Source: Bdellovibrionales bacterium (GTDB lineage Bacteria > Bdellovibrionota > Bdellovibrionia > Bdellovibrionales > JAUICD01). Taken from it: a stretch of DNA of 64,000 nucleotides. Shown piece by piece: positions 1-50,091 of the stretch. Each line of letters begins with the position of its first letter. Within the stretch, counting starts at the first letter, position 1. The notes under the pieces are model-generated. The model saw only the letters and a list, made by a program, of their open reading frames with translations. It did not search any database and was not told the DNA's origin. The stretch is from assembly GCA_965262715.1 (NCBI GenBank), contig OZ253553.1, forward strand, positions 480,001 to 544,000, read 5' to 3'. The position numbers and the translations under genes are program-made.

Positions 1-978
1 TGCTTCAAAAGTATGACATACTTTGTGATAAAGTTTTGAGTCATGCTATGAGAGGGGTATCTTGTCGTAATTACAATGAACTTCTTGATGATATTGTAGG
101 AGGGACGGGTCTTTCTAAGAGTACAGTGAGCAGAGTCTTTAATAAGTCATCTAGGAAGTTTCTTGAATCTTTAAATGGTCGTGATCTGAGTAAGGATAAG
201 TTTTCATCAATTATGATTGATGGTGTTGTTTTTGGATCAAGGACAGTGGTTGTAGCTCTTGGCATCACAGTTGAAGGTAAGAAGTTAGTTCTGGGTCTTA
301 GAGAGGGTCATACAGAGAACTGGGAAGTTTGCAAGGACTTATTAGAGAGTTTAATAGCAAGAGGTCTTTGTTCAGATAAGCCTTACCTTTTTGTAATTGA
401 TGGTAGCAGATCTTTAAGGACAGCTATTAATAGAGTTTTTGGTAAGAGAGCAGTAGTTCAACGCTGTATTCACCACAAGGAGAGGAATGTTTTAAGTTAT
501 TTACCTCAGGAACGTCATTTAGAGTTTAAGCGTCGCTGGAAGATGGTGCATGGTTTTAATGATTATGATTCTTCTCAGAGAGAATACAATAAGTTACTGA
601 GTTGGTTAAGCAGGATTAATTATGCAGCATTGGCTTCACTTAAGGAAGCAAAGGAGGAGACACTGACAGTTATCAAGTTGAAGGTATCTCCACTGCTAAG
701 GAGAACCTTATCTTCTACAAATCCTATTGAGTCTGCTTTTTCTATTGTAAGAGATAAAGTCAGCAGGGTTAAGAACTGGAGAAGTTCTCCAGATCAGGTT
801 ATGAGATGGGCTGCTGCTTCTTTAGTTGAAGCTGAAAAAAAGTTTAGAGCTATTAAAGGGTATAAAGATTTAAATACAATGGAAGAAAATTTAAACCTAT
901 TGACTAACAATAGAAACAGGCGTAGCAAAACATCAAGCTCTGCTTAACTTCAATTTCACCGAAACGTGGGACATCCTC
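1..978 (+). mobile_element. IS256-family insertion sequence, right part; left end lies outside the window
   Basis: Transposase ORF followed by a terminus AATTTCACCGAAACGTGGGACATCCTC ending at ~978, resembling IS256-type ends; the neighbouring gene is cut at this point. Confidence 0.8.
3..947 (+). CDS. IS256-family (mutator-type) DDE transposase, 5'-partial
   Basis: GVS.R / SKSTVSR, IMIDG, VALGIT.EG.K.VLG, FVIDG, QRC.HHKERN and STNPIES motifs; frame is open to the window edge. Confidence 0.92.
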   Translation, partial: LQKYDILCDKVLSHAMRGVSCRNYNELLDDIVGGTGLSKSTVSRVFNKSSRKFLESLNGRDLSKDKFSSIMIDGVVFGSRTVVVALGITVEGKKLVLGLREGHTENWEVCKDLLESLIARGLCSDKPYLFVIDGSRSLRTAINRVFGKRAVVQRCIHHKERNVLSYLPQERHLEFKRRWKMVHGFNDYDSSQREYNKLLSWLSRINYAALASLKEAKEETLTVIKLKVSPLLRRTLSSTNPIESAFSIVRDKVSRVKNWRSSPDQVMRWAAASLVEAEKKFRAIKGYKDLNTMEENLNLLTNNRNRRSKTSSSA

Positions 979-2015
979 CCATCATCGCAAGGATAATTGC
1001 TAAACTTTTTACTAAAAGGATGTATATATAGGTCTTTATCGGGACTAATGAGATAAGCATGAAATTCAGCTTGGCCTTCATTAATAGCAGCAATACAACC
1101 TTTATATGTATTACAACATATACTCTCAGACAAAACTCTTTTACATTCTTTTTGTGTAGATGTTGAATAATGGCCTTCATTTTCATTGGAATAAGTAAGA
1201 TTAGCATGTCCAGACTCATGCAAAAGAGTTTCAAAACTATTACCTTCAAAGAAGAGATCATCCTCATCTATTCTTAGAGCTATAGTATTTGTACCAGGAT
1301 GCCAAAGACCATTGACCCAACCAACTATATTGTATTCATCAGAAAATGTGTTCTTATCCATCAATTTCACATTTATACTTCCATCTTTTGCATAAAAAGT
1401 GCCTGCATTTAATTCCATCCATTCTTTTTGATACATAAGCCAGTGATAAACTGATGCTTGATGACCTGTTTTATTAATATCATTGAGGTTACTCTTTGTC
1501 CATTTACCCTTTGTAAGAGCAGCTTTTTTAAGTGGAGCATTATCCCAAAATGCTGATATTTTATAAGAAGCATTTTCAAGGGCATCGTTTGTAGAAGTAC
1601 CCAATATATTAACTCCAAACAAATTTTCTGTTGGAGGGTCTGACATATGTAGAGGATATTTTCTTTTAAAAATACAAGCATTAAATTCGGGATTTGTATG
1701 ACAGTCGGGCATCCTTTCTGATCCAAATCCCATTGAGGGGAGTTGAATTTCTATATCTACTGTTGTATTAGTCGTAGTAGTAACAGTAACAGTAGTCGTC
1801 GTTATAGGTGTCGCCTCTGATGTTTTTATCTCTGAATGAGATTGAGATTCTATCTTTTCAGTTGGTGATTCACAATTCTGAAAATTGATCGCTAAAAATA
1901 AAAGGGAAGAAGTTAAAATAAATATCTGTGAATATCGTTTCTCTTTTAAAAAACAATATTTCTGTCTCAGTGATCTTAACCTATAACTAAAATATTTTAA
2001 GATAGTTATAATCAT
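933..2015 (-). CDS. Putative lipoprotein zinc metalloprotease (thermolysin/gluzincin-like), C-terminus truncated by the IS256 element
   Basis: Hydrophobic stretch + FQNC lipobox-like motif, Thr-rich linker, HESGH and downstream INEGQA; last residues (RMSHVSVKLKLSRA) are read from the IS end. Confidence 0.7.
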   Translation of the reverse strand: MIITILKYFSYRLRSLRQKYCFLKEKRYSQIFILTSSLLFLAINFQNCESPTEKIESQSHSEIKTSEATPITTTTVTVTTTTNTTVDIEIQLPSMGFGSERMPDCHTNPEFNACIFKRKYPLHMSDPPTENLFGVNILGTSTNDALENASYKISAFWDNAPLKKAALTKGKWTKSNLNDINKTGHQASVYHWLMYQKEWMELNAGTFYAKDGSINVKLMDKNTFSDEYNIVGWVNGLWHPGTNTIALRIDEDDLFFEGNSFETLLHESGHANLTYSNENEGHYSTSTQKECKRVLSESICCNTYKGCIAAINEGQAEFHAYLISPDKDLYIHPFSKKFSNYPCDDGRMSHVSVKLKLSRA

Positions 2016-2041: not shown

Positions 2042-2070
2042 ATAATCGGTATAGGTCTTAAATAACTTTA
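2042..2070 (-). promoter_or_regulatory. Candidate sigma-28 (FliA) promoter of the metalloprotease gene
   Basis: Minus strand TAAAG-N15-ACCGATTA, ~27 bp upstream of the start codon. Confidence 0.5.
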
Positions 2071-2091
2071 GAAATATCAATAATTTATTTA

Positions 2092-2119
2092 CTTTCTACC
2101 GCCCACGCATGGGCGCAGC
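2092..2119 (-). CRISPR. Degenerate terminal CRISPR repeat (trailer end), separated from the array by a 155-bp structured element
   Basis: CTTTCTACCGCCCACGCATGGGCG matches the first 24 nt of the repeat, then cagc instead of taac. Confidence 0.9.
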
Positions 2120-2268
2120 TGTTTCCCTAAAAATGCTCTGACCTCTGGCCACTTTTTGACAACCAGCCTGACTAGCTTTCGCTGTCAGGCAAATAGCTGG
2201 TTGCCTAAAAAGATTGAGCATTTTTAGGAAGGAGAATCCTCTCATTTTTTTTTACAATGTTAAGGAAA
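2119..2268 (-). ncRNA. Structured dispersed element family A, copy 1, in the CRISPR spacer slot
   Basis: Minus-strand stems CCTAAAAATGCTC/GAGCATTTTTAGG, GCAACCAGC/GCTGGTTGT, CTGAC-AGC-GAAA-GCT-A-GTCAG and TGGCC-AGA-GGTCA; homologues elsewhere in the window. Function as an RNA is inferred. Confidence 0.6.
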
Positions 2269-2274
2269 TGAAAA

Positions 2275-3082
2275 CTTTCTACCGCCCACGCATGGGCGTA
2301 ACTCCTCAGGAAGTCTTAGATAAATTTGATTATTCTTTCTACCGCCCACGCATGGGCGTAACTTTAAGCGATGATGATTTAAACGAGATTTTCGCTTTCT
2401 ACCGCCCACGCATGGGCGTAACTCGCAGCGCGCAATAATAAAGAATAAACTATTCTTTCTACCGCCCACGCATGGGCGTAACTTAACTACGAAAAAGACT
2501 TTAAAAATTGTGCACTTTCTACCGCCCACGCATGGGCGTAACAGAATGGGTAATCGACTAAAAGTTACAGATCTCTTTCTACCGCCCACGCATGGGCGTA
2601 ACTGTTATTATTTCAACATTGAGACTGATTCAATCTTTCTACCGCCCACGCATGGGCGTAACCTAAATAAGATGATCCATCCTCTGCGATCTCCCTTTCT
2701 ACCGCCCACGCATGGGCGTAACTTCTTACACTGCACCTGTTTCTTGATATCATTCTTTCTACCGCCCACGCATGGGCGTAACTCGCAGCGCGTAATACTA
2801 AAGAATAAACTATTCTTTCTACCGCCCACGCATGGGCGTAACTTACACACTTTATGTACGCACTCAGCCTATTGCTTTCTACCGCCCACGCATGGGCGTA
2901 ACAAGTTGTATAGAAGGGATTCTCCACAATCGCTCTTTCTACCGCCCACGCATGGGCGTAACCACATTAGTAATAACCACATCATCAACACCTGCTTTCT
3001 ACCGCCCACGCATGGGCGTAACTCTTGACGCACCTATATCAAGAATAAATTCTTCTTTCTACCGCCCACGCATGGGCGTAAC
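2275..3082 (-). CRISPR. CRISPR array: 14 identical 28-bp repeats (minus strand GTTACGCCCATGCGTGGGCGGTAGAAAG) and 13 spacers of 32 bp
   Basis: Exact 60-bp period from 2275 to 3055; hairpin CGCCCA-TGCG-TGGGCG followed by an 8-nt handle GTAGAAAG; orientation inferred from the cas strand, the handle and the degenerate repeat at 2092. Confidence 0.99.
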
Positions 3083-3126
3083 ACATACATAAATATACTC
3101 AATAATATCAGTAAGTTTAAGATAAT

Positions 3127-3420
3127 TTAATGATTATTATTAATGCCTAATAGATGATTAAATATTCCTTCATTAGTTTGACGGCTTCTCAAGTCTCCAA
3201 AGACATAAGATCGAAATCCTAAATGATGAGTAGCATCAGACCATATAAATACCACTCTAAAATCTGTGTTTACTTTTTCCAATTCTTTTATAATTTCTTC
3301 TCTAATACCATTTTTTGGCCATACCCATACATCCATAGCTATTCTCCAACAGTACCTACCAATAATTCCACGAGCCTTATCACTTTTTTCTTTTAAAGCA
3401 TCATTAATAATAACAATCAT
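3127..3420 (-). CDS. cas2: Stand-alone Cas2
   Basis: 97 aa directly after cas1 and before the array; MIVIIND start and VFIWS..GF..YVFG end resemble I-E Cas2. Confidence 0.8.
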   Translation of the reverse strand: MIVIINDALKEKSDKARGIIGRYCWRIAMDVWVWPKNGIREEIIKELEKVNTDFRVVFIWSDATHHLGFRSYVFGDLRSRQTNEGIFNHLLGINNNH

Positions 3421-4296
3421 TCAATTATCCTTTTTAAAAACCTCATTTAATGTTCTCAATAAATAATTTAAAACGTCTATATCTAATACTAATTTCATAA
3501 ATTGATTTTTTATTTCTGTTAAACTCCATTTTTCTTTGGCAGCAATAAAAGAAAGATTTAAAGCAATGACAGGTTTGACAACATCTGCAAGATCATAAGA
3601 TAAACCTCCTCCTTTTGTTCTCCCATGTAGTACACCAATATTAGGATCATAACCTAAATGCAAAATGGTTAAATCTGCTAAAGAATAAGATAAAAAGTTC
3701 AAGAATGTGAGAAAATCTTTTTTCCCTCTAAAAGGTTTCCCTCTTGCCACTCTTGGAACATCATATTGCATAGCTAAAGATTTATAAGTTTCTCTTGCCC
3801 ATGCTCCTTCTTTTGATAAAAGTGTATTGATGGTGTCTTCATCCTTTCCTAAAGGAAATTCAGGTAGCTTTATAGAGGAATACTTCTTTATAAACAAAGA
3901 CCTCCTTTTAAAAAGAATTTTTGCAGATTCAATTCTTTTAACTTCATCACATATAATATTATGCTGTCTGATACGTGGAAGCGGTGACCTGTGCTGTGTA
4001 GAGCATAGATAAAGAGGAGCAGCATTGCCACCCATAACACCTATCAAACAACCCCTTGAAGATATAATCCTCATAGCTTCTGATGTGATGCTTGTGCCTG
4101 GACCTAAAAATAAGCCTCCAATGCCAGAAACTGGAATAGAATATTCTTCTTTTAAATTTGCTTTGAAGATTCTTATATCATTATCCTTTCTTTTAATCTT
4201 GCTATATTCTGTATAATAAAAAGGGATCCTTCTTGATAGAGGGATTAATGGTTGAACTTCATCAATACTGATATAATTCCGTTTAACTTGAGTCAT
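3421..4296 (-). CDS. cas1: Cas1 integrase (I-F/I-E-like)
   Basis: IP...LGPGTSIT..AM, EGAWAR, VLHGRTKGGGLSYDLAD..K (catalytic E/H/D present). Confidence 0.95.
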   Translation of the reverse strand: MTQVKRNYISIDEVQPLIPLSRRIPFYYTEYSKIKRKDNDIRIFKANLKEEYSIPVSGIGGLFLGPGTSITSEAMRIISSRGCLIGVMGGNAAPLYLCSTQHRSPLPRIRQHNIICDEVKRIESAKILFKRRSLFIKKYSSIKLPEFPLGKDEDTINTLLSKEGAWARETYKSLAMQYDVPRVARGKPFRGKKDFLTFLNFLSYSLADLTILHLGYDPNIGVLHGRTKGGGLSYDLADVVKPVIALNLSFIAAKEKWSLTEIKNQFMKLVLDIDVLNYLLRTLNEVFKKDN

Positions 4297-6899
4297 TTTT
4301 TAAAAATCTTATTTAGAGTTTCTTTTTTAACTAATCCAAATTTTTTATGATACACTCTATGTGTTGTTTTTCCACTGTCTTCATCAAAAAGTGCTTTTTT
4401 AAAACATTCGTTTATTTCTTTATCAAAATGAGAACATAATAAAGGTCGCTCTGTTTTAAACCCAAAAGTTTTTATGTACCTATTGTATTCAAATACTTCT
4501 TGATCATTGATTTTATTCGCCTTATTGCATTTTGATATTGTCTTCAAACAAGTGCTCATAGCTTCTTCTATCTTCTTTATAAACCATATTCTACTTTCAT
4601 TAAGTAAATCCTCATCTCGTAGCTGATTTTGTAATCGTCCTTTATCATCCACAACACAAGCACTTAAAAGACGAGATTCACCTCTAAATAAACTGTTAAA
4701 CACCTGTGAAGATGCTTTTTTGTTTTTACCAAGTGAAAACCTTTTTGGAATATATTTATTTAATTCTTCAATAGCCTTTTTTTGCTGTTTTTTTAAAACT
4801 CCAAGAGATATCTCGATGTTTTCTTTACTCCAAAAAGTATCATAAACTTGCATAAGTTTTCTAATAGAAATAGCTTTATTATCTTGATCTATAATAAAAG
4901 ATAAAAAATGCTTTTTCCAATTCTGATGAATTTTTTTGAAATCTGCTTTTCTTTCATCAAAAAAGTTCTCTGATTCTTCATTGTAAATAAAATGAATTTC
5001 TGCATCTGGTTTGTTTTCAAACCTATTGATTCTTCCAGCAGTCTGACAATCTGTATGAGGCTGTGATAACTCTACGAGTGCTTTATCAAAGCTAAGATTG
5101 TAAGAGGATTGCAACATTTTAGATGTAATGACTGAATTTTGACTTATATAAGCGGTTTTTTGTCCATGCTCTTTTAAAATATTTTCCAATAACTCTTTTT
5201 TGTCCTCAGTTGTAAAATAGGTATGTATCATTTTTATTTGATCTTTATAAGTTTTAAAAAGACGAGAAAAGACTTCTTGGCAAGACTCAACCCTCAAGAA
5301 AGAATACAAACAATCAGGAATAAATTCTTTAATATCTTCTATTTCTTTCTCTTGAGCAGAAATTTTAAATTTGTGACCTTCTCTTGACGATAGTTCATCT
5401 CTTTTGAAAACAAATTTATCTTCTATATTAATATTAATTAGTTTTAAAAGAGATGGTTCTGGTGTTCCACTGAGCATTAAAGTTTTAACTCCAGAATCAA
5501 GCCAGGACCTAATAGTTAATACCTCTTTTAAAGAAGGAATCATTTTAGGAATATCTTTAAATTCATGAAACTCATCAAGAACTAAATGAGATCGAAGCAT
5601 TTTTACAAACTCTGAAGACTGGCTTCTCTTATAATAAGGGCTTAAAAATCGATCAAAAACCATGATATTAATATCTAAAATTAAAAAGTCCTCCTCCTCC
5701 TCTGGGTTCCAATTACAATGTTGTCTTTGCCCATTAAAAACTCCTTCTATTTTGATTTTTTGATCCCCATAAACTCTTTGGCTATCTTCTTCTAAAGACT
5801 TAGCCCATTAAAAACTCCTTCTATTTTGATATCCCCATAAATATCTTCTTCTAAGAGACTGGCAGGTAAATAAACCAGTGATTTGATGTTGCCTTGGAAG
5901 GGCTATCATTAAAGGATACTCATTATGGCAGTGATGCCACCAATAAAGTGCAATACTGGTTTTACCTCCTGCTGGATCAACTCCGCAAACAGAAAGTTTT
6001 TTATCTGACATTTTTTGGGCTAAATCATTCTGTTCTTTACTTTTTGGATTGTTATTCAGGTTTTCTAAAAGAATAGGTTTTTCTCTTTTGTGTGAATTAG
6101 TTTTAAAATTTTTCCAGTCATTTAAAAACCCTTGTAATTCTTCTAGACTCCAAGAAGAAACTGTCCTATCAGACTCAAGAAGTAAATTTAAACAAAGCTG
6201 CTTGCAGGCATTATCTATAACAGAATCCATTTTATGTTTAAAAAATTCAGGATATTGAAATCTTTTAACATTTTTTTGATTTGGATCTTCTAAATCTGGC
6301 GGACAATTTATCTTAAGATATGTTGAAAAAGAACAAAAAAGATCACAAATAAATTTATAAATTTGAAAAAGAACAAAAAAGATCACAAATAAATTTGCTA
6401 TTTGACTTTCTTTTACACTTTCAAAAATGTCTTTAGAATTTTCAAAACGTATTTTATTTTTTTCATCACACCAATTAGCTGAGTGATGCCAATAAACAGA
6501 ATGTTGAACCGTATCTTCTATTTTTTCATTTTGAAAACCAATAAAATTAGCAATGTAAGCCCAAGATATCTCATTGTGGAATGGCCCTTTAAATGTTTTT
6601 GGTCTAGAAGATTCAGCATCTGTAGGGAGTTCTATTGAGTCATTGTTATTAGATTTTTTCTTAATGTGATTTTGAAAATTATCTGAAACTTTTCCTATAT
6701 CATGTAATAGACTGGAGTAAATCAAATATTTATTGATCTTTTCTTCTTTGTCTGACTTGAATTTTAAGGATTTTAACAATAAATGCCCATAGAGGGCTAT
6801 GGCTATGGAATGCTCTTTTAAAGGTTGCCCTTTTGTATTGGCCAATAAAGTATTTTCATTGTTTTTTTGATTCTTGTTCATTGCTTTCTTCCCAGTCAT
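4293..6899 (-). pseudogene. cas3: Cas3 HD nuclease-helicase split by an in-frame TAA at 5808-5810 (ORFs 5808..6899 and 4293..5663 share one frame)
   Basis: N part: EHS, LLHDIGK, HNEIS, YWHH and Walker A GGKT. C part: LDEFH, SGT, QTAGRINR. The sequence between them is open after the stop. No N-terminal Cas2 domain. Confidence 0.88.
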
Positions 6900-6935
6900 A
6901 TTTTTTAATTTTCATCCCTGCTTTTCTTAAATCTT

Positions 6936-7940
6936 TTATTTTATTTGTACAAAAATATCATCTTTTATCTCATAACCACGTCCCATTTCATCCAAGCCTT
7001 CATAACTTACAAATGCAACTCCACCTTCACCCCATCTGGCTAGATTTGGGCCTTGCCTTAATTTTTCGATAAGTTCATCCCAAGCCCAATGCTTAGAGAG
7101 GTCTTGTTGATCTTCAAAGGCACTTTGTGCAAAATAAACATTGAAATCCACGCAGGCAATAAACGCAGGCTTTCCTCTCACAATTTTATGATATTTTTTA
7201 TCGACCCAAAATTTTGTAAACTTGGGACAAGCAAATGAGCTAAATTGATTCTGATTAAAATTTGTAAAATTCTGTCCAAATTTAGAGTCCTTTAAACAAA
7301 GAGAGTTGACTTCATCAATTATTCCCATAGTCTTTTTATAGATTGGTGTTCCTTTTTGTTGCATCTTTTTAAAATAAATCTTCATTTCCTTACCAAGCTT
7401 TGTATTAGGTATAGCTTCACTTCTAGGATTTTTTAAATCATCATACTCTGAGTCCTTCTTTTCAACTTTACTTTCTGAAATTCCTTCATTAACTGTACCA
7501 AGTGAATTTGTTTCAAAAATATTTCTTAGTGGTTGTTTAAAAAGTTTTATTGTTGGATTTGCCGTTTCAAAAGTGTGTTGATGAAGGTTCACATTAGGAT
7601 CAGCTTTAAAGTTTTTTGTATGAACATCTCTTCTTTCAAAAAAAGTAGTAACATAAAGTTCTGATACTTTTTTACAGGCAGATGCTTGAACCATTATATC
7701 CAAAGTAGTATTCAACTTTTGAATTGAGATATCAGTGCTATTCTCTATTTTCTTTATTTTTTGAGTTTCTCCCATTAAATAAGCAAATAAACCCTTTAAA
7801 GAACTTGATCTCACAAGAGGTAAAACTTTTTGATTCTTATCTGTTGGATGATCTGAAAGATTAAGATTGACTGGATTAAAATCTTTATTTTGTTTGATAT
7901 AAATACCACCAGATCGAACTTTTAATTGAATATAAGACAT
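6936..7940 (-). CDS. cas5: Cas5, I-F2 (Cas5fv)-like large Cas5
   Basis: 334 aa after cas7; SLKGLFAYLMGE, IVRGKP and a C-terminal G-rich loop WGEGGVAFVS resemble Cas5fv as recalled (VMGVLNRLIGD, IWGNP, LGKKGLAYVS). Confidence 0.7.
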   Translation of the reverse strand: MSYIQLKVRSGGIYIKQNKDFNPVNLNLSDHPTDKNQKVLPLVRSSSLKGLFAYLMGETQKIKKIENSTDISIQKLNTTLDIMVQASACKKVSELYVTTFFERRDVHTKNFKADPNVNLHQHTFETANPTIKLFKQPLRNIFETNSLGTVNEGISESKVEKKDSEYDDLKNPRSEAIPNTKLGKEMKIYFKKMQQKGTPIYKKTMGIIDEVNSLCLKDSKFGQNFTNFNQNQFSSFACPKFTKFWVDKKYHKIVRGKPAFIACVDFNVYFAQSAFEDQQDLSKHWAWDELIEKLRQGPNLARWGEGGVAFVSYEGLDEMGRGYEIKDDIFVQIK

Positions 7941-7954
7941 AATCTTTCACCACC

Positions 7955-8911
7955 CTAAGCTGCTTTTTTAGATTCTTCAAAAAAATGATGAAACTTTATA
8001 CTATTCAATTTTTCTTTTAAATCAGATTCACCTATATCCATAGAATCTTCTCCATCAAAGAAATGAACTGTTAAAGAGCCTTTCAGATAAGCTAATCTAG
8101 CTCCTGCTTTAAGGCCATGTATCATTTTGATTCTTTGAAATACTACTTTTACCAAATGACAGATTTGCTCTTGATTAAGTAAAATACCTGTTCTTGGATT
8201 TTTATAAACTGCTGTTGAATCAATATAATCCTTCACTTCAAGAGTTTCATCCACGCCATGTTTTTTAAAGTATTCTTTAAGAAGACTTATAAACTCATCC
8301 TTTTTGTCTTTAGGGATCATTGCAAAATCATTATCAACTCCATATAAAGATAAAAATTGAAGCTCTTTGAGATTGATTCCACCTAGAAGTTCTTGTTGTC
8401 TATAAGGAACATTGTCTTTTGAGAACATAGCAATATCACCTTTTTCTTTGCCTTGTGCTTTCCCTTCTTCTTTCGGTTTTGAACTTGAACCTTGGTCAAA
8501 AACAATTTCTACATCACCAATGGTTTGAGCATCTGCTATATGTAGAGGAGAGCATCTTTTAAGACCTTTAAGACCTTTAGAATCACCTTTTTCATCCGGC
8601 GATAAATAGCCTCTCAAAAGCCCGACTTCTGAAGCGACCATTTGAATAAATTGATCAGCAAATGTTTTGCTGGAAGGCTGTCTTGGTTGAATATCTTTAA
8701 AAATCTCATGTCTTATACAACGTGAAGATGTATAGTCAATTTCTTTTTCTAAACCTTTATCATCTTTAATTTTAAATATTTTTGCACCAATATTATTCTT
8801 GTACCATTGATTACTGTCAGGATCTTTTCTATCTTTTTTAGCATTATAGTTATAGATTCCCCATACATCTAACTTTCCTTCAAAAGTAATACATTTAACT
8901 TGCTGACTCAT
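7955..8911 (-). CDS. cas7: Cas7, I-F2 (Cas7fv)-like backbone subunit
   Basis: YTSSRCIRHEIF, ASEVGLLRGY, KRCSPL, FSK, LQFLSL and GILLN are colinear with recalled Shewanella Cas7fv motifs (YISQNCIRHHLF, ASITGLIRGY, KRTSPL, LQFISL, GILLN). Confidence 0.85.
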   Translation of the reverse strand: MSQQVKCITFEGKLDVWGIYNYNAKKDRKDPDSNQWYKNNIGAKIFKIKDDKGLEKEIDYTSSRCIRHEIFKDIQPRQPSSKTFADQFIQMVASEVGLLRGYLSPDEKGDSKGLKGLKRCSPLHIADAQTIGDVEIVFDQGSSSKPKEEGKAQGKEKGDIAMFSKDNVPYRQQELLGGINLKELQFLSLYGVDNDFAMIPKDKKDEFISLLKEYFKKHGVDETLEVKDYIDSTAVYKNPRTGILLNQEQICHLVKVVFQRIKMIHGLKAGARLAYLKGSLTVHFFDGEDSMDIGESDLKEKLNSIKFHHFFEESKKAA

Positions 8912-9446
8912 ACTTTTCTCCTCCTTTAATTAAAATTAATCCATAGCCATAAGACTTTCTTGATCCTATGCCTTCTGTTAATGCTTGATTAAATTTATCA
9001 TGATCTAAGATGTGAAATAATCCTTCTATGTGAAAAGCATTATGAACATGAAATTTCTTTTCACATTGAGGACCAAGAAATTCACAAGTTGCTTTATCTT
9101 CTTTAAGACCAGATAAAAAACAAAATTTTTCCAATGCCTCTTTTGAATACATTTTTTTAGGGACAATTGTTTTTCCATCTGTATCACGAAGTGATATATG
9201 CTTGTTACAAAATGCAACATGAGTTTCTAATTCTACCATCTTACAACTCTTATTTACCAAAACAGTCTTTTGAAAATTATGATGCAGGGATTTTACAGGG
9301 GGTATTTTTGAGAGAACATATAGTAAGTCACCTTGAGATAAAGATGGACATATATTTCGAGGTGAATTAAATAATTCTCTGATCAGTGAGTGAATTGATG
9401 AGTAACCTGCTTCAAATAGAGAAAAACAATAAATATTTCTCATCAA
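8895..9446 (-). CDS. cas6: Cas6 endoribonuclease, Cas6e-like
   Basis: C-terminal EGLFHILDHDKFNQALTEGIGSRKSYGYGLI (G.G..K.yG.GL loop typical of Cas6e); first gene of the operon. Confidence 0.85.
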   Translation of the reverse strand: MMRNIYCFSLFEAGYSSIHSLIRELFNSPRNICPSLSQGDLLYVLSKIPPVKSLHHNFQKTVLVNKSCKMVELETHVAFCNKHISLRDTDGKTIVPKKMYSKEALEKFCFLSGLKEDKATCEFLGPQCEKKFHVHNAFHIEGLFHILDHDKFNQALTEGIGSRKSYGYGLILIKGGEKYESAS

Positions 9447-9551
9447 ATAATCCTATATTATTAATGATCGATTGAAAAAATACATTGATTTTACTTGCTT
9501 TAGTTGAAGTGATGATTTGACTGTGGTATGACTAGGTGCTGTATTTATAGT

Positions 9552-9578
9552 TTATCGGATAATTAAAAGTTTTCTTAA
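9552..9578 (-). promoter_or_regulatory. Candidate sigma-28 promoter of the cas operon
   Basis: Minus strand TTAAG-N14-TCCGATAA, ~105 bp upstream of cas6. Confidence 0.55.
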
Positions 9579-9856
9579 GAGATCATTTTAAATTAAATAA
9601 GAATGTATGTTTCTTGATATGTTTTTGTTTAAGTTATGTTTCTTTTTAAGAACTTACAGATATTACTGGGGCTGTTGTTGTTTTATTTTAAGCTAGTCTG
9701 TTTAAAATATTCTTTTCTGGTTTTTTAACCTATAATGCTTAACAAAATACCAAATTTAAATAATATCTATTTTTTTTAAAGTTCTAAGTCCGCAAGCTAT
9801 TATATTTTTTTGAAGATGAATGACTTGATCACCTAAGTAGATACAGTAAAGTTGAT

Positions 9857-10430: not shown

Positions 10431-10641
10431 CTTTCTACCACCCACGCATGGGCGCGATTGTTTCCCTAAAAATGCTCTGGCCTCTGGCCACTTTTTGACA
10501 ACCAGCCTGACTAGCTCTCGCTGTCAGGCAAATAACTGGTTGTCTAAAAAGATTGAGCATTTTTAGGAAGGAGAATCTTCTCATTTTTTTAAACGATGTT
10601 AAGGAAATGAAAGCTTTCTACCGCCCACGCATGGGCGTAAC
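10431..10641 (-). CRISPR. CRISPR mini-array: perfect repeat (10614-10641), 155-bp family A element, degenerate repeat (10431-10458)
   Basis: Close homologue of 2092-2302, with identical 183-bp repeat-to-repeat spacing. Confidence 0.9.
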
Positions 10642-10822
10642 AAAAGTTTTCTATTCATTAATAATGAGTGTACAAGAATAATGGTTGAAAAGCTATATGA
10701 AATTTCGATATTGGATGTCGAGATTTCATACTATATTTATGTGTCTTTATGATACATTTGTCCGACTGCTTATCTTATGTACTTTTACATAGCTTATCTT
10801 GATTCATAATCTGATTATTTGT

Positions 10823-10917
10823 ATTGATTTTCTATTCAAATGAGTTGAAGTGATGATTTGATTATGATATGACTAGCTGTACTTAATAGTTATCCAGGTG
10901 ATTAAAGATTCTCTTAG
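10823..10917 (-). repeat. Diverged copy of the cas-operon upstream/promoter region (9484-9578)
   Basis: Shared AGTTGAAGTGATGATTTGA...TATGACTAG...CTGTA.TT.ATAGT...ATTAAA...TCTTA blocks. Confidence 0.75.
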
Positions 10918-10979
10918 CAGGTTATCTTAATCCAAGATATAATATATCAAGATATAATAAGTCATAAGGAGTTAAAAGT

Positions 10980-11603
10980 ATGGATATGATGGATCAAATT
11001 AAACAAAGCATTAAGGACTTAGTAGAAGCTCAAAAGAAAGGTCAAGAAGATGTAGATAAAAAGTTTAAGGAAGTTGCAGAAAGCCGAAAGAAAGGTCGAG
11101 AGGAAGTAGATAAAGAATTTAAAGAGCTTGCAGAAATCAATAAAAAAACAGATAAAAGGATCAATCAACTTATAGGTGAATGGGGTAATCAATGGGGAGA
11201 GTTTATTGAAAAGTTAGTAGACTCTAATATGATACGCCTTCTAGAACAACAAGGCATTGAGGTCAAACAAACTACAACCCGAGTTAAAGATAAAAGACCT
11301 CATCACCGTTGGGAGATTGACATTTTAGCTATAAACGGAAAAGAGATTGTTGCTATAGAAGTCAAAAAAACCTTAAAAAAAGAAGATGTAGATTATTTTA
11401 TAGAAGTTTTAAATATGTTTAAAAATGATTGGGCTGATTGTGCCAACAAAACTCTTTATGGAGGAATGGCCTATCTTGCCTGTAAAGAGCAAGTCGTCAA
11501 ATATGCAGAAAAATTGGGTTTATTTGTTTTTCAAGCTACAGGTAATAGTGCTACACTAGTGAATGAGCCTGGCTTTAAACCTAAGGCGATTTTATCAACT
11601 TAA
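10980..11603 (+). CDS. Coiled-coil + PD-(D/E)XK nuclease-fold protein (DUF3782-like)
   Basis: Repetitive charged helical N-terminus, GNQWGEFIE, EIDILAING..IVAIEVK. Confidence 0.75.
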   Translation: MDMMDQIKQSIKDLVEAQKKGQEDVDKKFKEVAESRKKGREEVDKEFKELAEINKKTDKRINQLIGEWGNQWGEFIEKLVDSNMIRLLEQQGIEVKQTTTRVKDKRPHHRWEIDILAINGKEIVAIEVKKTLKKEDVDYFIEVLNMFKNDWADCANKTLYGGMAYLACKEQVVKYAEKLGLFVFQATGNSATLVNEPGFKPKAILST

Positions 11604-11722
11604 TTGTAAAACCATTATCAATGTATTATCCACATAAGAAAAGTCATTAGATATAAGCATTCTTTAGATATTTGTAGGAAAGCTAACACCATAATAGTAT
11701 TGTTGTGTTATATCTCTTGAAT

Positions 11723-33424: not shown

Positions 33425-33586
33425 CTGTTTCCCTAAAAATGAACTGGCCTCTCGAGGCGAGCCTCTGGCCATTTTTGGACAATCAGCCTGAAGACTTACA
33501 TCTTCAAGAAAATGCTGATTGTCTCAAAAACCTGTTCATTTTTAGGAAGGAGATTCTCTTCGTTTTTTTACATGATGTTAAGGAAA
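33425..33586 (-). repeat. Structured element family A copy
   Basis: Minus: CCTAAAAATGAAC/GTTCATTTTTAGG, GACAATCAGC/GCTGATTGTC, TTGAAGAT-GTAA-GTCTTCAG. Confidence 0.8.
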
Positions 33587-33758
33587 TTGTTTCTGAAAAC
33601 TTGGTTACTTTTTAACAAATTACCAATAAACTTAAAGTTGTCCTGTTGAGAGACAGATATTTTATCAATTCGCAACAAGTTTATAAATTTCTGAACTTAA
33701 ATGTTGTCTTAATACTAGACTAGATAGTCCAGTGTCTTAATGATTTCAGCTACTTAGC

Positions 33759-49813: not shown

Positions 49814-49962
49814 CTGTTTCAGTAAAAGTGCATCTCGCCTCTGGCGACTTTTTGGCAGTAAGCCTGGCGGTTAGAACCGTCGGCAAATAGCTTACTGCCT
49901 AGAAAGGCTAATGCATTTTAGTAGGGAGGATCTTCTTGTTTCTTAACACAATGTTAGGGAAA
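49814..49962 (-). repeat. Structured element family A copy (diverged)
   Basis: GGCAGTAAGC/GCTTACTGCC and TCGCC-AGA-GGCGA stems; same terminal motifs. Confidence 0.75.
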
Positions 49963-50091
49963 TTTTATTCTTGCCATCGGATCAGTACCTAGATTTATTT
50001 CATGGACAATCCTCAAAGAGGCTCACCTCGAGAGGCTCACCTCGAGAGGCTTGTCTTCTATTCATTTTGAGTAAAACAGAATGAAGGAAAT

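Follow-up and report, generated by a model that had tools for sequence, protein, structure and literature searches.

CRISPR-Cas locus and array layout

The window analysed here, a 64,000-nt stretch of the Bdellovibrionales genome G000, carries a compact set of cas genes on the minus strand. Profile searches matched a stand-alone, I-E-like cas2 (3127..3420), cas1 (3421..4296), a Cas3fv-like cas3 (4293..6899) and a Cas6e-like cas6 (8895..9446). A cas7fv-like gene (7955..8911) matched NF040577 at 89 bits against a cut-off of 200, and a likely cas5 (6936..7940) was assigned from its position and a weak TIGR01895 match (E 0.052), Cas5fv itself being unmatched. The cas3 gene is split between two reading frames (5808-6899 and 4293-5663), with an imperfect tandem duplication of ~70 nt (5725-5860) at the break, and corresponds to one 838-aa frame in G001, a different species of the same genus; judged from the sequence, the split could be due to faulty assembly. 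The seven ORFs of the locus include no recognisable cas8.

Fusion of Cas2 to Cas3 is a trait of type I-F2, and it is absent here, with cas2 separate and following cas1. By profile analysis the system appears to work like a minimal I-F2, at scores below curated cut-offs, and the locus (3127-9446) may be an undescribed I-F2/I-E mosaic. As far as the available text of PMC4937334 describes type I-F2 (I-Fv) of Shewanella putrefaciens, the two systems share Cas7fv- and Cas3fv-like genes, the lack of a detected large subunit and 32-nt spacers, whereas the system here has a stand-alone I-E-like Cas2 and a Cas6e-like Cas6. Relatives of the Cas7 number about 50, the closest being P0001 (97%), P0002 (88%) and P0003 (74%); within the order, 5 of 384 genomes gave a Cas7 match. 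Elsewhere in the window (27969-56310), paralogous gene blocks are duplicated at spacings of 2.6, 3.1 and 5.6 kb.

The CRISPR array (2275..3082, minus strand) consists of 14 perfect 28-nt repeats and 13 spacers of 32 nt each, including a near-duplicate spacer pair at 2423 and 2783. A short 44-nt leader (3083..3126, minus strand) separates cas2 from the first repeat, and a similar AT-rich motif lies ahead of the arrays of relatives. Because this leader is on the cas2 side, the slot at the opposite end is the oldest in the array. It is there that an extra repeat with two mismatches (2092-2119) is separated from the perfect repeats by 155 nt instead of 32, as the original prediction had noted. On the minus strand the repeat forms a 6-bp stem followed by an 8-nt 3' tail, and both repeats around the slot retain this stem and the handle GTAGAAAG, again as predicted.

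The slot had been described as filled exactly by a structured element, which proved inaccurate. Its core is a 149-nt copy of a dispersed structured repeat family (2120..2268), with a GAAA loop at 2177-2180 on the minus strand, and six further bases, TGAAAA (2269..2274), lie between the element and the repeat; this hexamer is uncommon as a family tail, being absent from the family's 12 commonest right tails in G000. The outer repeat is likewise composite. It consists of a truncated repeat, R' (2092..2115, minus strand), which keeps 24 of the 28 nt with stem and handle intact, and of a 4-nt junction, CAGC (2116..2119), in place of the repeat's TAAC. Read on the array strand, it is the 5' end of the repeat that is altered, on the side of the element. 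Beyond R' lies a 32-nt AT-rich block, X (2060..2091), which is likely an old spacer.

The 211-nt unit of R', element and repeat is predicted to fold at -96.3 kcal/mol (z -9.45, with none of 200 shuffles as stable), and the apical GAAA lies on the array strand, so the GNRA loop had been placed correctly on the strand in which the array is read. Folded on the opposite strand, the 155 nt gave -50.3 (z -4.58). Rfam returned no match near its gathering score, only four weak matches (E 1.3-3.5) far under threshold, and a promoter and terminator scan gave 3 and 1 sites, the same as in shuffles.

The element belongs to an abundant hairpin repeat family

Profile searching found 455 family matches in G000, 289 of them full length, and 1307 in G001. 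Across 61 genomes the element occurs in three, all of one taxonomic family (G000, G001 and G004), and G003 is without it. It makes up ~2% of one genome and 7% of the measured part of another. Of the gaps of at least 150 nt, it occupies 210 of 1259 in G000 and, over the first 1.27 Mb of G001, 188 of 477; 5 of 172 element clusters lie inside ORFs. Two ordinary dispersed copies within the window (33426..33587 and 49815..49963, both 73% identical) are accompanied by no CRISPR repeat. The family is thus short, non-coding and present in many dispersed copies, as MITEs are, and it shows both tandem clusters that include flanking DNA and nested insertion.

Median identity within the family is 68-70%. 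In a set of 66 non-redundant copies, out of 133 of standard length and without a shuffle control, 23 of 33 predicted pairs had compensatory changes in at least three sequences; the opposite strand gave 22 of 28 pairs and did slightly better in consensus energy. In 49 of 80 copies the better fold was that of the GNRA strand. The two ends of the consensus match imperfectly over ~12 nt, a putative terminal inverted repeat, with the left end pairing with an internal copy instead. A reading of the element as an integron attC site, whose motif pairs AAC with GTT, was dropped on sequence alone, as the GTT has no AAC partner.

Direct repeats of 21-284 nt flank 37 of the 231 G000 copies with distinct flanks, compared to 0 of 231 shuffled pairings, and the remaining 194 had no duplication at the score threshold used. 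Thirteen of the 37 lie within tandem arrays of elements, 18 at the ends of such arrays, and six are lone cases. An earlier element precedes the left repeat in 16 of the 18 array-end copies, indicating that the usual unit is the element plus a right flank of variable length, rejoined to the left end 0-5 nt before TG. The six lone repeat-element-repeat cases include two of the CRISPR cassettes described below and one perfect 30-nt duplication of a tRNA 3' fragment. In G001, the same census found direct repeats at 31 of 381 copies versus 4 of 381 controls; this automated census missed the G001 CRISPR cassette, whose duplication was aligned by hand. No target duplication of fixed length was found, very short duplications being judged by eye only, and our initial reading of the flanking repeats as a classic target duplication was dropped because the census favours element-plus-flank tandems. 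Two copies in G001 (L021:11201-11348 and 11547-11689), lying within a direct repeat, have identical ends and flanks and interiors as unlike as those of unrelated members, which suggests that element bodies are overwritten within fixed flanks.

Three cassettes in one genome and a shared junction in a relative

The R'-element-R cassette is found three times in G000: at the array, at 10431..10641 on the minus strand (94% identical) and at G000:C1:476714-476925 (89%), 3.1 kb left of the window. No other family copy exceeds 82% identity with the element. Block X, the 32 nt left of the main cassette, matches the 31 nt on the right-hand side of the third at 90% identity (blastn, G000:C1:476926-476956), as if the two cassettes had once stood in one array, one spacer apart. 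The cleavable stem and 8-nt handle are intact in the main cassette, carry one change giving a G-U pair at 10431, and are broken in the third cassette, which has 9 mismatches over 52 repeat positions, stems and handles included, and 11 over the 149 positions of its element.

The second cassette has unrelated flanks and no leader motif was seen beside it. Immediately to its right, 10642-10665 match the right end and flank of an element at G000:C1:2818958 at 22 of 24 positions (score 18, against 17 for the best among 600 controls). Most of its CRISPR repeat stands between the two halves of an 11-nt near-repeat, and the cassette as a whole is bracketed by a 91-nt direct repeat (76%; 9502-9591 and 10843-10930) located in the upstream regions of cas6 and of a divergent PD-(D/E)XK-like gene.

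The array of this CRISPR type in G001 ends in the same register as that of G000, with a 24-nt truncated repeat, four junction bases and an element. In all four cassettes, the three of G000 and that of G001, the outer repeat matches over positions 1-24 only, and its last four bases are CAGC, CGAT and CAGT in G000 and AGGT in G001, compared to TAAC in a normal repeat. These four bases look family-typical in G001, where GT precedes TG in 57 of 228 copies and AC in 4, but in G000 CAGC scores no differently from TAAC. The G001 slot is 313 nt long and contains a pair of oppositely oriented elements, with more copies to the left, so that slots of 155 and 313 nt stand against a unit spacer length of 32-33 nt in these arrays. 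A direct repeat of 197 nt encloses it, whose two copies share their ends exactly, are 78% identical overall and stop at repeat position 24, which is the family's ordinary tandem pattern. The distance from element to repeat is 6 nt in G000 and 10 nt in G001.

The original prediction had raised two possibilities for related genomes, an ordinary spacer struck by a chance insertion or an array ending in the same cassette. The relative has no ordinary spacer at this place, and its array does end at the same nucleotide with family copies, within a longer slot of different content. The cas1 genes of the two species are 79% identical, and chance insertion does not account for their use of the same nucleotide, which may reflect either one old event or a preference for the base of the stem. 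Comparison of the element bodies gave no support for orthology, the G001 body being as far from the G000 cassettes as from other copies (ranks 68, 109 and 139 of 231); one ancestral event may nevertheless underlie both junctions, as bodies turn over inside identical flanks.

At the level of the locus, the element is absent from five more distant loci of this CRISPR type (G355, G366, G215, L028 and L031), which makes the repeat older than its association with the element. Named relatives of the CRISPR system fall in Bdellovibrionales and Pseudobdellovibrio. The repeat had no matches in metagenome contigs or in viral contigs, single-protein Cas7 scans found no relatives among genome or metagenome contigs, and an alignment-based scan gave six loci, four of which were already in the set. 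The L028 array (L028:15964-18432) has many internally stuttering repeats with extra GCGGTAG units, which may reflect slippage or faulty sequencing. In G355, the I-F2-like array runs directly into an apparent I-E-type repeat (L023:8766-8791), and its end repeat resembles a G000 array at 2450769.

Element copies at the ends of other CRISPR arrays and of tRNAs

Family copies were also fused to the end repeats of other CRISPR types. A 60-repeat Cas12a-type array in G000, beside a cas12a gene, has its last repeat cut at position 23 of 36 and joined to an element, and this fused unit recurs four times, each copy starting from the repeat border after one of three kinds of left neighbour. The Cas12a-type array of G001 has its end repeat cut at 31 of 36. 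The leaders of the two arrays align, placing both fusions at the leader-distal end. If crRNAs here run as in Cas12a arrays generally, the GNRA strand is antisense to the crRNA in both. A third fusion, at the end far from the cas genes, cuts a repeat at 34 of 38 in a G001 array assigned to the Cas9 type by the size and order of its genes. Beside the Cas12a-type array of G000 (G000:C1:2591988-2601755) lie two large genes, of 1334 and 1407 aa; the start of the second matches Cas12a, and the G001 locus has a relative of the first, as judged by a similar N-terminus.

In total, five of nine arrays carry the element, two of five in G000 and three of four in G001, the latter after two of six calls (1945511 and 2251012) were excluded as non-CRISPR tandem repeats. 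Element density predicts ~2.6 clusters for G000 and 2.9 for G001, a figure that still includes both excluded calls, so the count is near expectation and needs no targeting. All five insertions lie inside a repeat at the array end, and this position does call for a cause; turnover of the array, together with selection against insertions on the leader side, would account for it. Identity among the five array-linked copies is 68-82%, near the family median, and all five have a GNRA loop, compared to 77 of 215 copies family-wide by a cruder scan.

Element left ends adjoin the ends of 7 of 38 tRNAs in G000 (0.21 expected) and 4 of 37 in G001 (0.66 expected); at long ORFs they were found in 18 of 1519 cases. 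A general preference for the bases of hairpins was not found in G000 (6 of 134 versus 74 of 1500). In G001 it was weak, at 20 of 159 versus 27 of 472 with a lower threshold and 9 of 159 versus 17 of 472 with a higher one, and several of the hairpin-type flanks there are remnants of other family copies.

Proposed origin of the oversized slot

The slot holds one copy of this hairpin family, which is likely a non-autonomous mobile element. Taken together, we consider it probable that this copy is a selfish insertion brought to the array's old end, and not a purpose-made cargo. An element would have landed beside or inside a CRISPR repeat and moved to the old end as spacers were added. In the order of events that we propose, it would first have come to lie 6 nt (G000) or 10 nt (G001) from a repeat. 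Tandem copying of the element with its right flank would then have taken the first 24 bases of that repeat and joined them to the left end of an element, creating R'. Finally, the fused unit would have been trimmed and scattered through recombination between repeats, so that each of the three cassettes starts exactly at a repeat border. The fourfold recurrence of the Cas12a-type fused unit in G000 provides a model for this spreading step. No element lies left of R' in G000, so the copying step requires a later loss, and the first element may have been removed by repeat recombination. On this account, an earlier suggestion comes close: a host repeat lodged in the array and a CRISPR repeat was duplicated, apparently through the element family and repeat recombination and not through Cas1-Cas2.

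Several observations count against this proposal: the missing mobiliser, the use of the same nucleotide in two species, the placing of all five insertions in a repeat at an array end, the GNRA loop in all five array-linked copies, the lack of a general preference for hairpin bases in G000, and the rarity of lone repeat-element-repeat cases, which make up only 6 of 231 copies, two of them the cassettes themselves. Recombination between R' and R, which share 24 nt, should also be able to delete the element, yet three copies persist.

A more ambitious version has a low probability: a new protein-less element would target the ends of genes for structured RNAs (tRNAs and three CRISPR repeat types), with CRISPR repeats as its landing pads, would copy itself with variable flanks and, in I-F2-like arrays, would be cut by host Cas6 into a 183-nt RNA able to load onto or soak up Cascade.

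Search for a mobilising enzyme

Checks of element ends or of distributions among genomes found no mobilising enzyme for the family among Y1, reverse transcriptase, IS110, IS1634-like, IS30, IS256, IS5 and IS3 candidates. Among the three carriers, Y1 (PF01797) was found in G000 and not in G001 or G004, and the closest element lies ~1.8 kb from its single gene. Reverse transcriptase genes showed the same distribution, and no IS110 was found in G000, G001 or G004. The behaviour of the element resembles one-ended rolling-circle copying; a search for the IS91 Y2 transposase (PF04986) gave zero matches anywhere, 14 controls included. In the G000 assembly, which is 93% complete, no transposase was found bounded by the element's ends, and the multi-copy IS types have other ends. 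The family works like a REPIN or a MITE, but has no partner enzyme of either kind among those checked.

One candidate deserves separate discussion, as a transposase that makes long, variable target duplications could have placed the element in the end repeat, with R' as the duplicated target. G000 contains an element that we label IS1634-like, with direct repeats of 49-575 bp in 11 of the 18 copies listed. In the available part of PMC2266710, IS1549/IS1634 show repeats of this kind. PF01609 transposases (~550-aa open frames) also track the element, being present in the carriers G000, G001 and G004 and not in the element-free G003, and the perfect 30-nt duplication of a tRNA 3' fragment around one lone copy would fit such a reaction. 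However, five related IS1634-like types all have ends starting with CCTGA, unlike the ends of the element, element-plus-flank tandems account for most of the flanking repeats, and at the threshold used 194 of 231 copies lack a duplication. We regard this route as unlikely.

An IS256-family element sits inside one copy of a ~327-bp direct repeat flanking an IS1634-like element (window 1-980 and G000:C1:477462-479419). This composite insertion interrupts a gene (933-2015) for a predicted lipoprotein with an HExxH motif and no Pfam match.

Predicted RNA from the slot

If both repeats around the slot were cut by Cas6, which is plausible, the product would be a 183-nt RNA beginning GUAGAAAG. In an unrestricted fold the two repeats pair with each other and the R' hairpin has a probability of 0.09, compared to 0.73 when pairing is limited to 120 nt. 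As a guide, it had been expected to match dispersed self copies, and it does not: against its first 32 nt, the 10431 cassette has 4 mismatches, every genomic site outside the cassettes has at least 6, and the sole other site with a perfect seed has 8.

The original prediction favoured a handle-tagged cargo, scaffold or regulatory RNA. A slot domesticated as a Cas6 substrate, comparable to non-guide RNAs of the Racr or mini-array type and yielding a Cascade decoy, scaffold or regulator, would be consistent with the stem and handle kept in the main cassette and nearly so at 10431, with the R' hairpin that forms under restricted pairing, and with the recurrence of the junction in G001. In Shewanella, the accessible portions of PMC4937334 report that longer spacers add Cas7fv subunits and so lengthen the backbone, and also that interference falls beyond +9 nt. 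Against this model, the content of the slot is not conserved with the cas locus, since G001 has 313 nt with two inverted elements and five other loci have no element; the repeats of the third cassette are decayed; orientation is reversed in the Cas12a-type arrays; and the free fold sequesters the R' hairpin. We find no sign of selection for the 183-nt RNA and no support for a function besides the junction shared with G001, and we judge domestication improbable. Under the insertion-and-recombination account, any 183-nt Cas6 product would be a by-product.

Acquisition of a family copy by Cas1-Cas2 as an oversized spacer, with duplication of the repeat, appears more doubtful again. Cassette borders do coincide with repeat borders, and an oversized pseudo-spacer between perfect repeats is on record in SiL-E1, as the available text of PMC3718332 describes it. 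Yet in all four cassettes 24 of the 28 repeat bases are duplicated, with the change on the element side, the G001 duplication extends over 197 nt, far beyond the repeat, and in three other arrays the element truncates a repeat rather than sitting between two. That the array grew out of a pre-existing repeat-element-repeat cassette, as the original prediction also proposed and as two lone cassettes without spacers might suggest, is scarcely credible given the same repeat type without the element in five more distant genomes, unless every one of them lost it.

Comparison with known systems

These findings indicate a route, independent of Cas1-Cas2, to odd, oversized last spacers and degenerate end repeats, and they caution against taking such slots for cargo RNAs. 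The main puzzle becomes the repeat family itself, which adjoins tRNA ends beyond chance and five of nine array ends, with no matching transposase among those checked. If it is true that Cas6 excises the element, the locus would offer a natural experiment on the handling of a long structured RNA by a minimal Cascade. Among the papers searched, few of them from subscription journals, we found no account of the family. Mobile repeats in CRISPR arrays are known; what is new is their repeated fusion to tRNA ends and to the terminal repeats of arrays of three CRISPR types, without a known enzyme.

A close parallel is a MITE of Anabaena PCC 7120, reportedly described by Hou et al. in 2019. According to the available text of bioRxiv 10.1101/2020.04.14.041012, this 134-nt element splits CR_6 from CR_7, and like the element here it is a short non-coding mobile repeat in an array; here, by comparison, five of nine arrays of three CRISPR types in two species are affected, always at the end and with fusion to a truncated repeat. 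The oversized insert between two repeats recalls SiL-E1 of Sulfolobus islandicus LAL14/1, which the accessible sections of PMC3718332 present as foreign plasmid DNA between perfect repeats, whereas the insert here is a host repeat family beside a repeat that is cut short. IS1549/IS1634, in the part of PMC2266710 at hand, resemble our case in the long variable direct repeats around mobile DNA, seen in the same genome for the IS1634-like elements, and differ in their ends and in that the repeats here are mostly element-plus-flank tandems.

CRISPR-array-targeting Tn7-like transposons likewise place mobile DNA at tRNA genes and arrays, with 4 of 11 in the last spacer in the available part of Chacon Machado and Peters 2025 (PMC11837452); theirs encode TnsD and transposases and leave the repeat intact, whereas the element here encodes nothing and truncates it. 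The REPIN/RAYT systems, as covered in the accessible text of Bertels and Rainey 2011 (PMC3116915), share hundreds of intergenic hairpin units, tandem clusters that include flanks, and insertion into or next to existing copies. The family described here differs from them in having no shared RAYT-type partner, in a 148-nt branched fold in place of a REP doublet, and in its abutment to tRNA ends.
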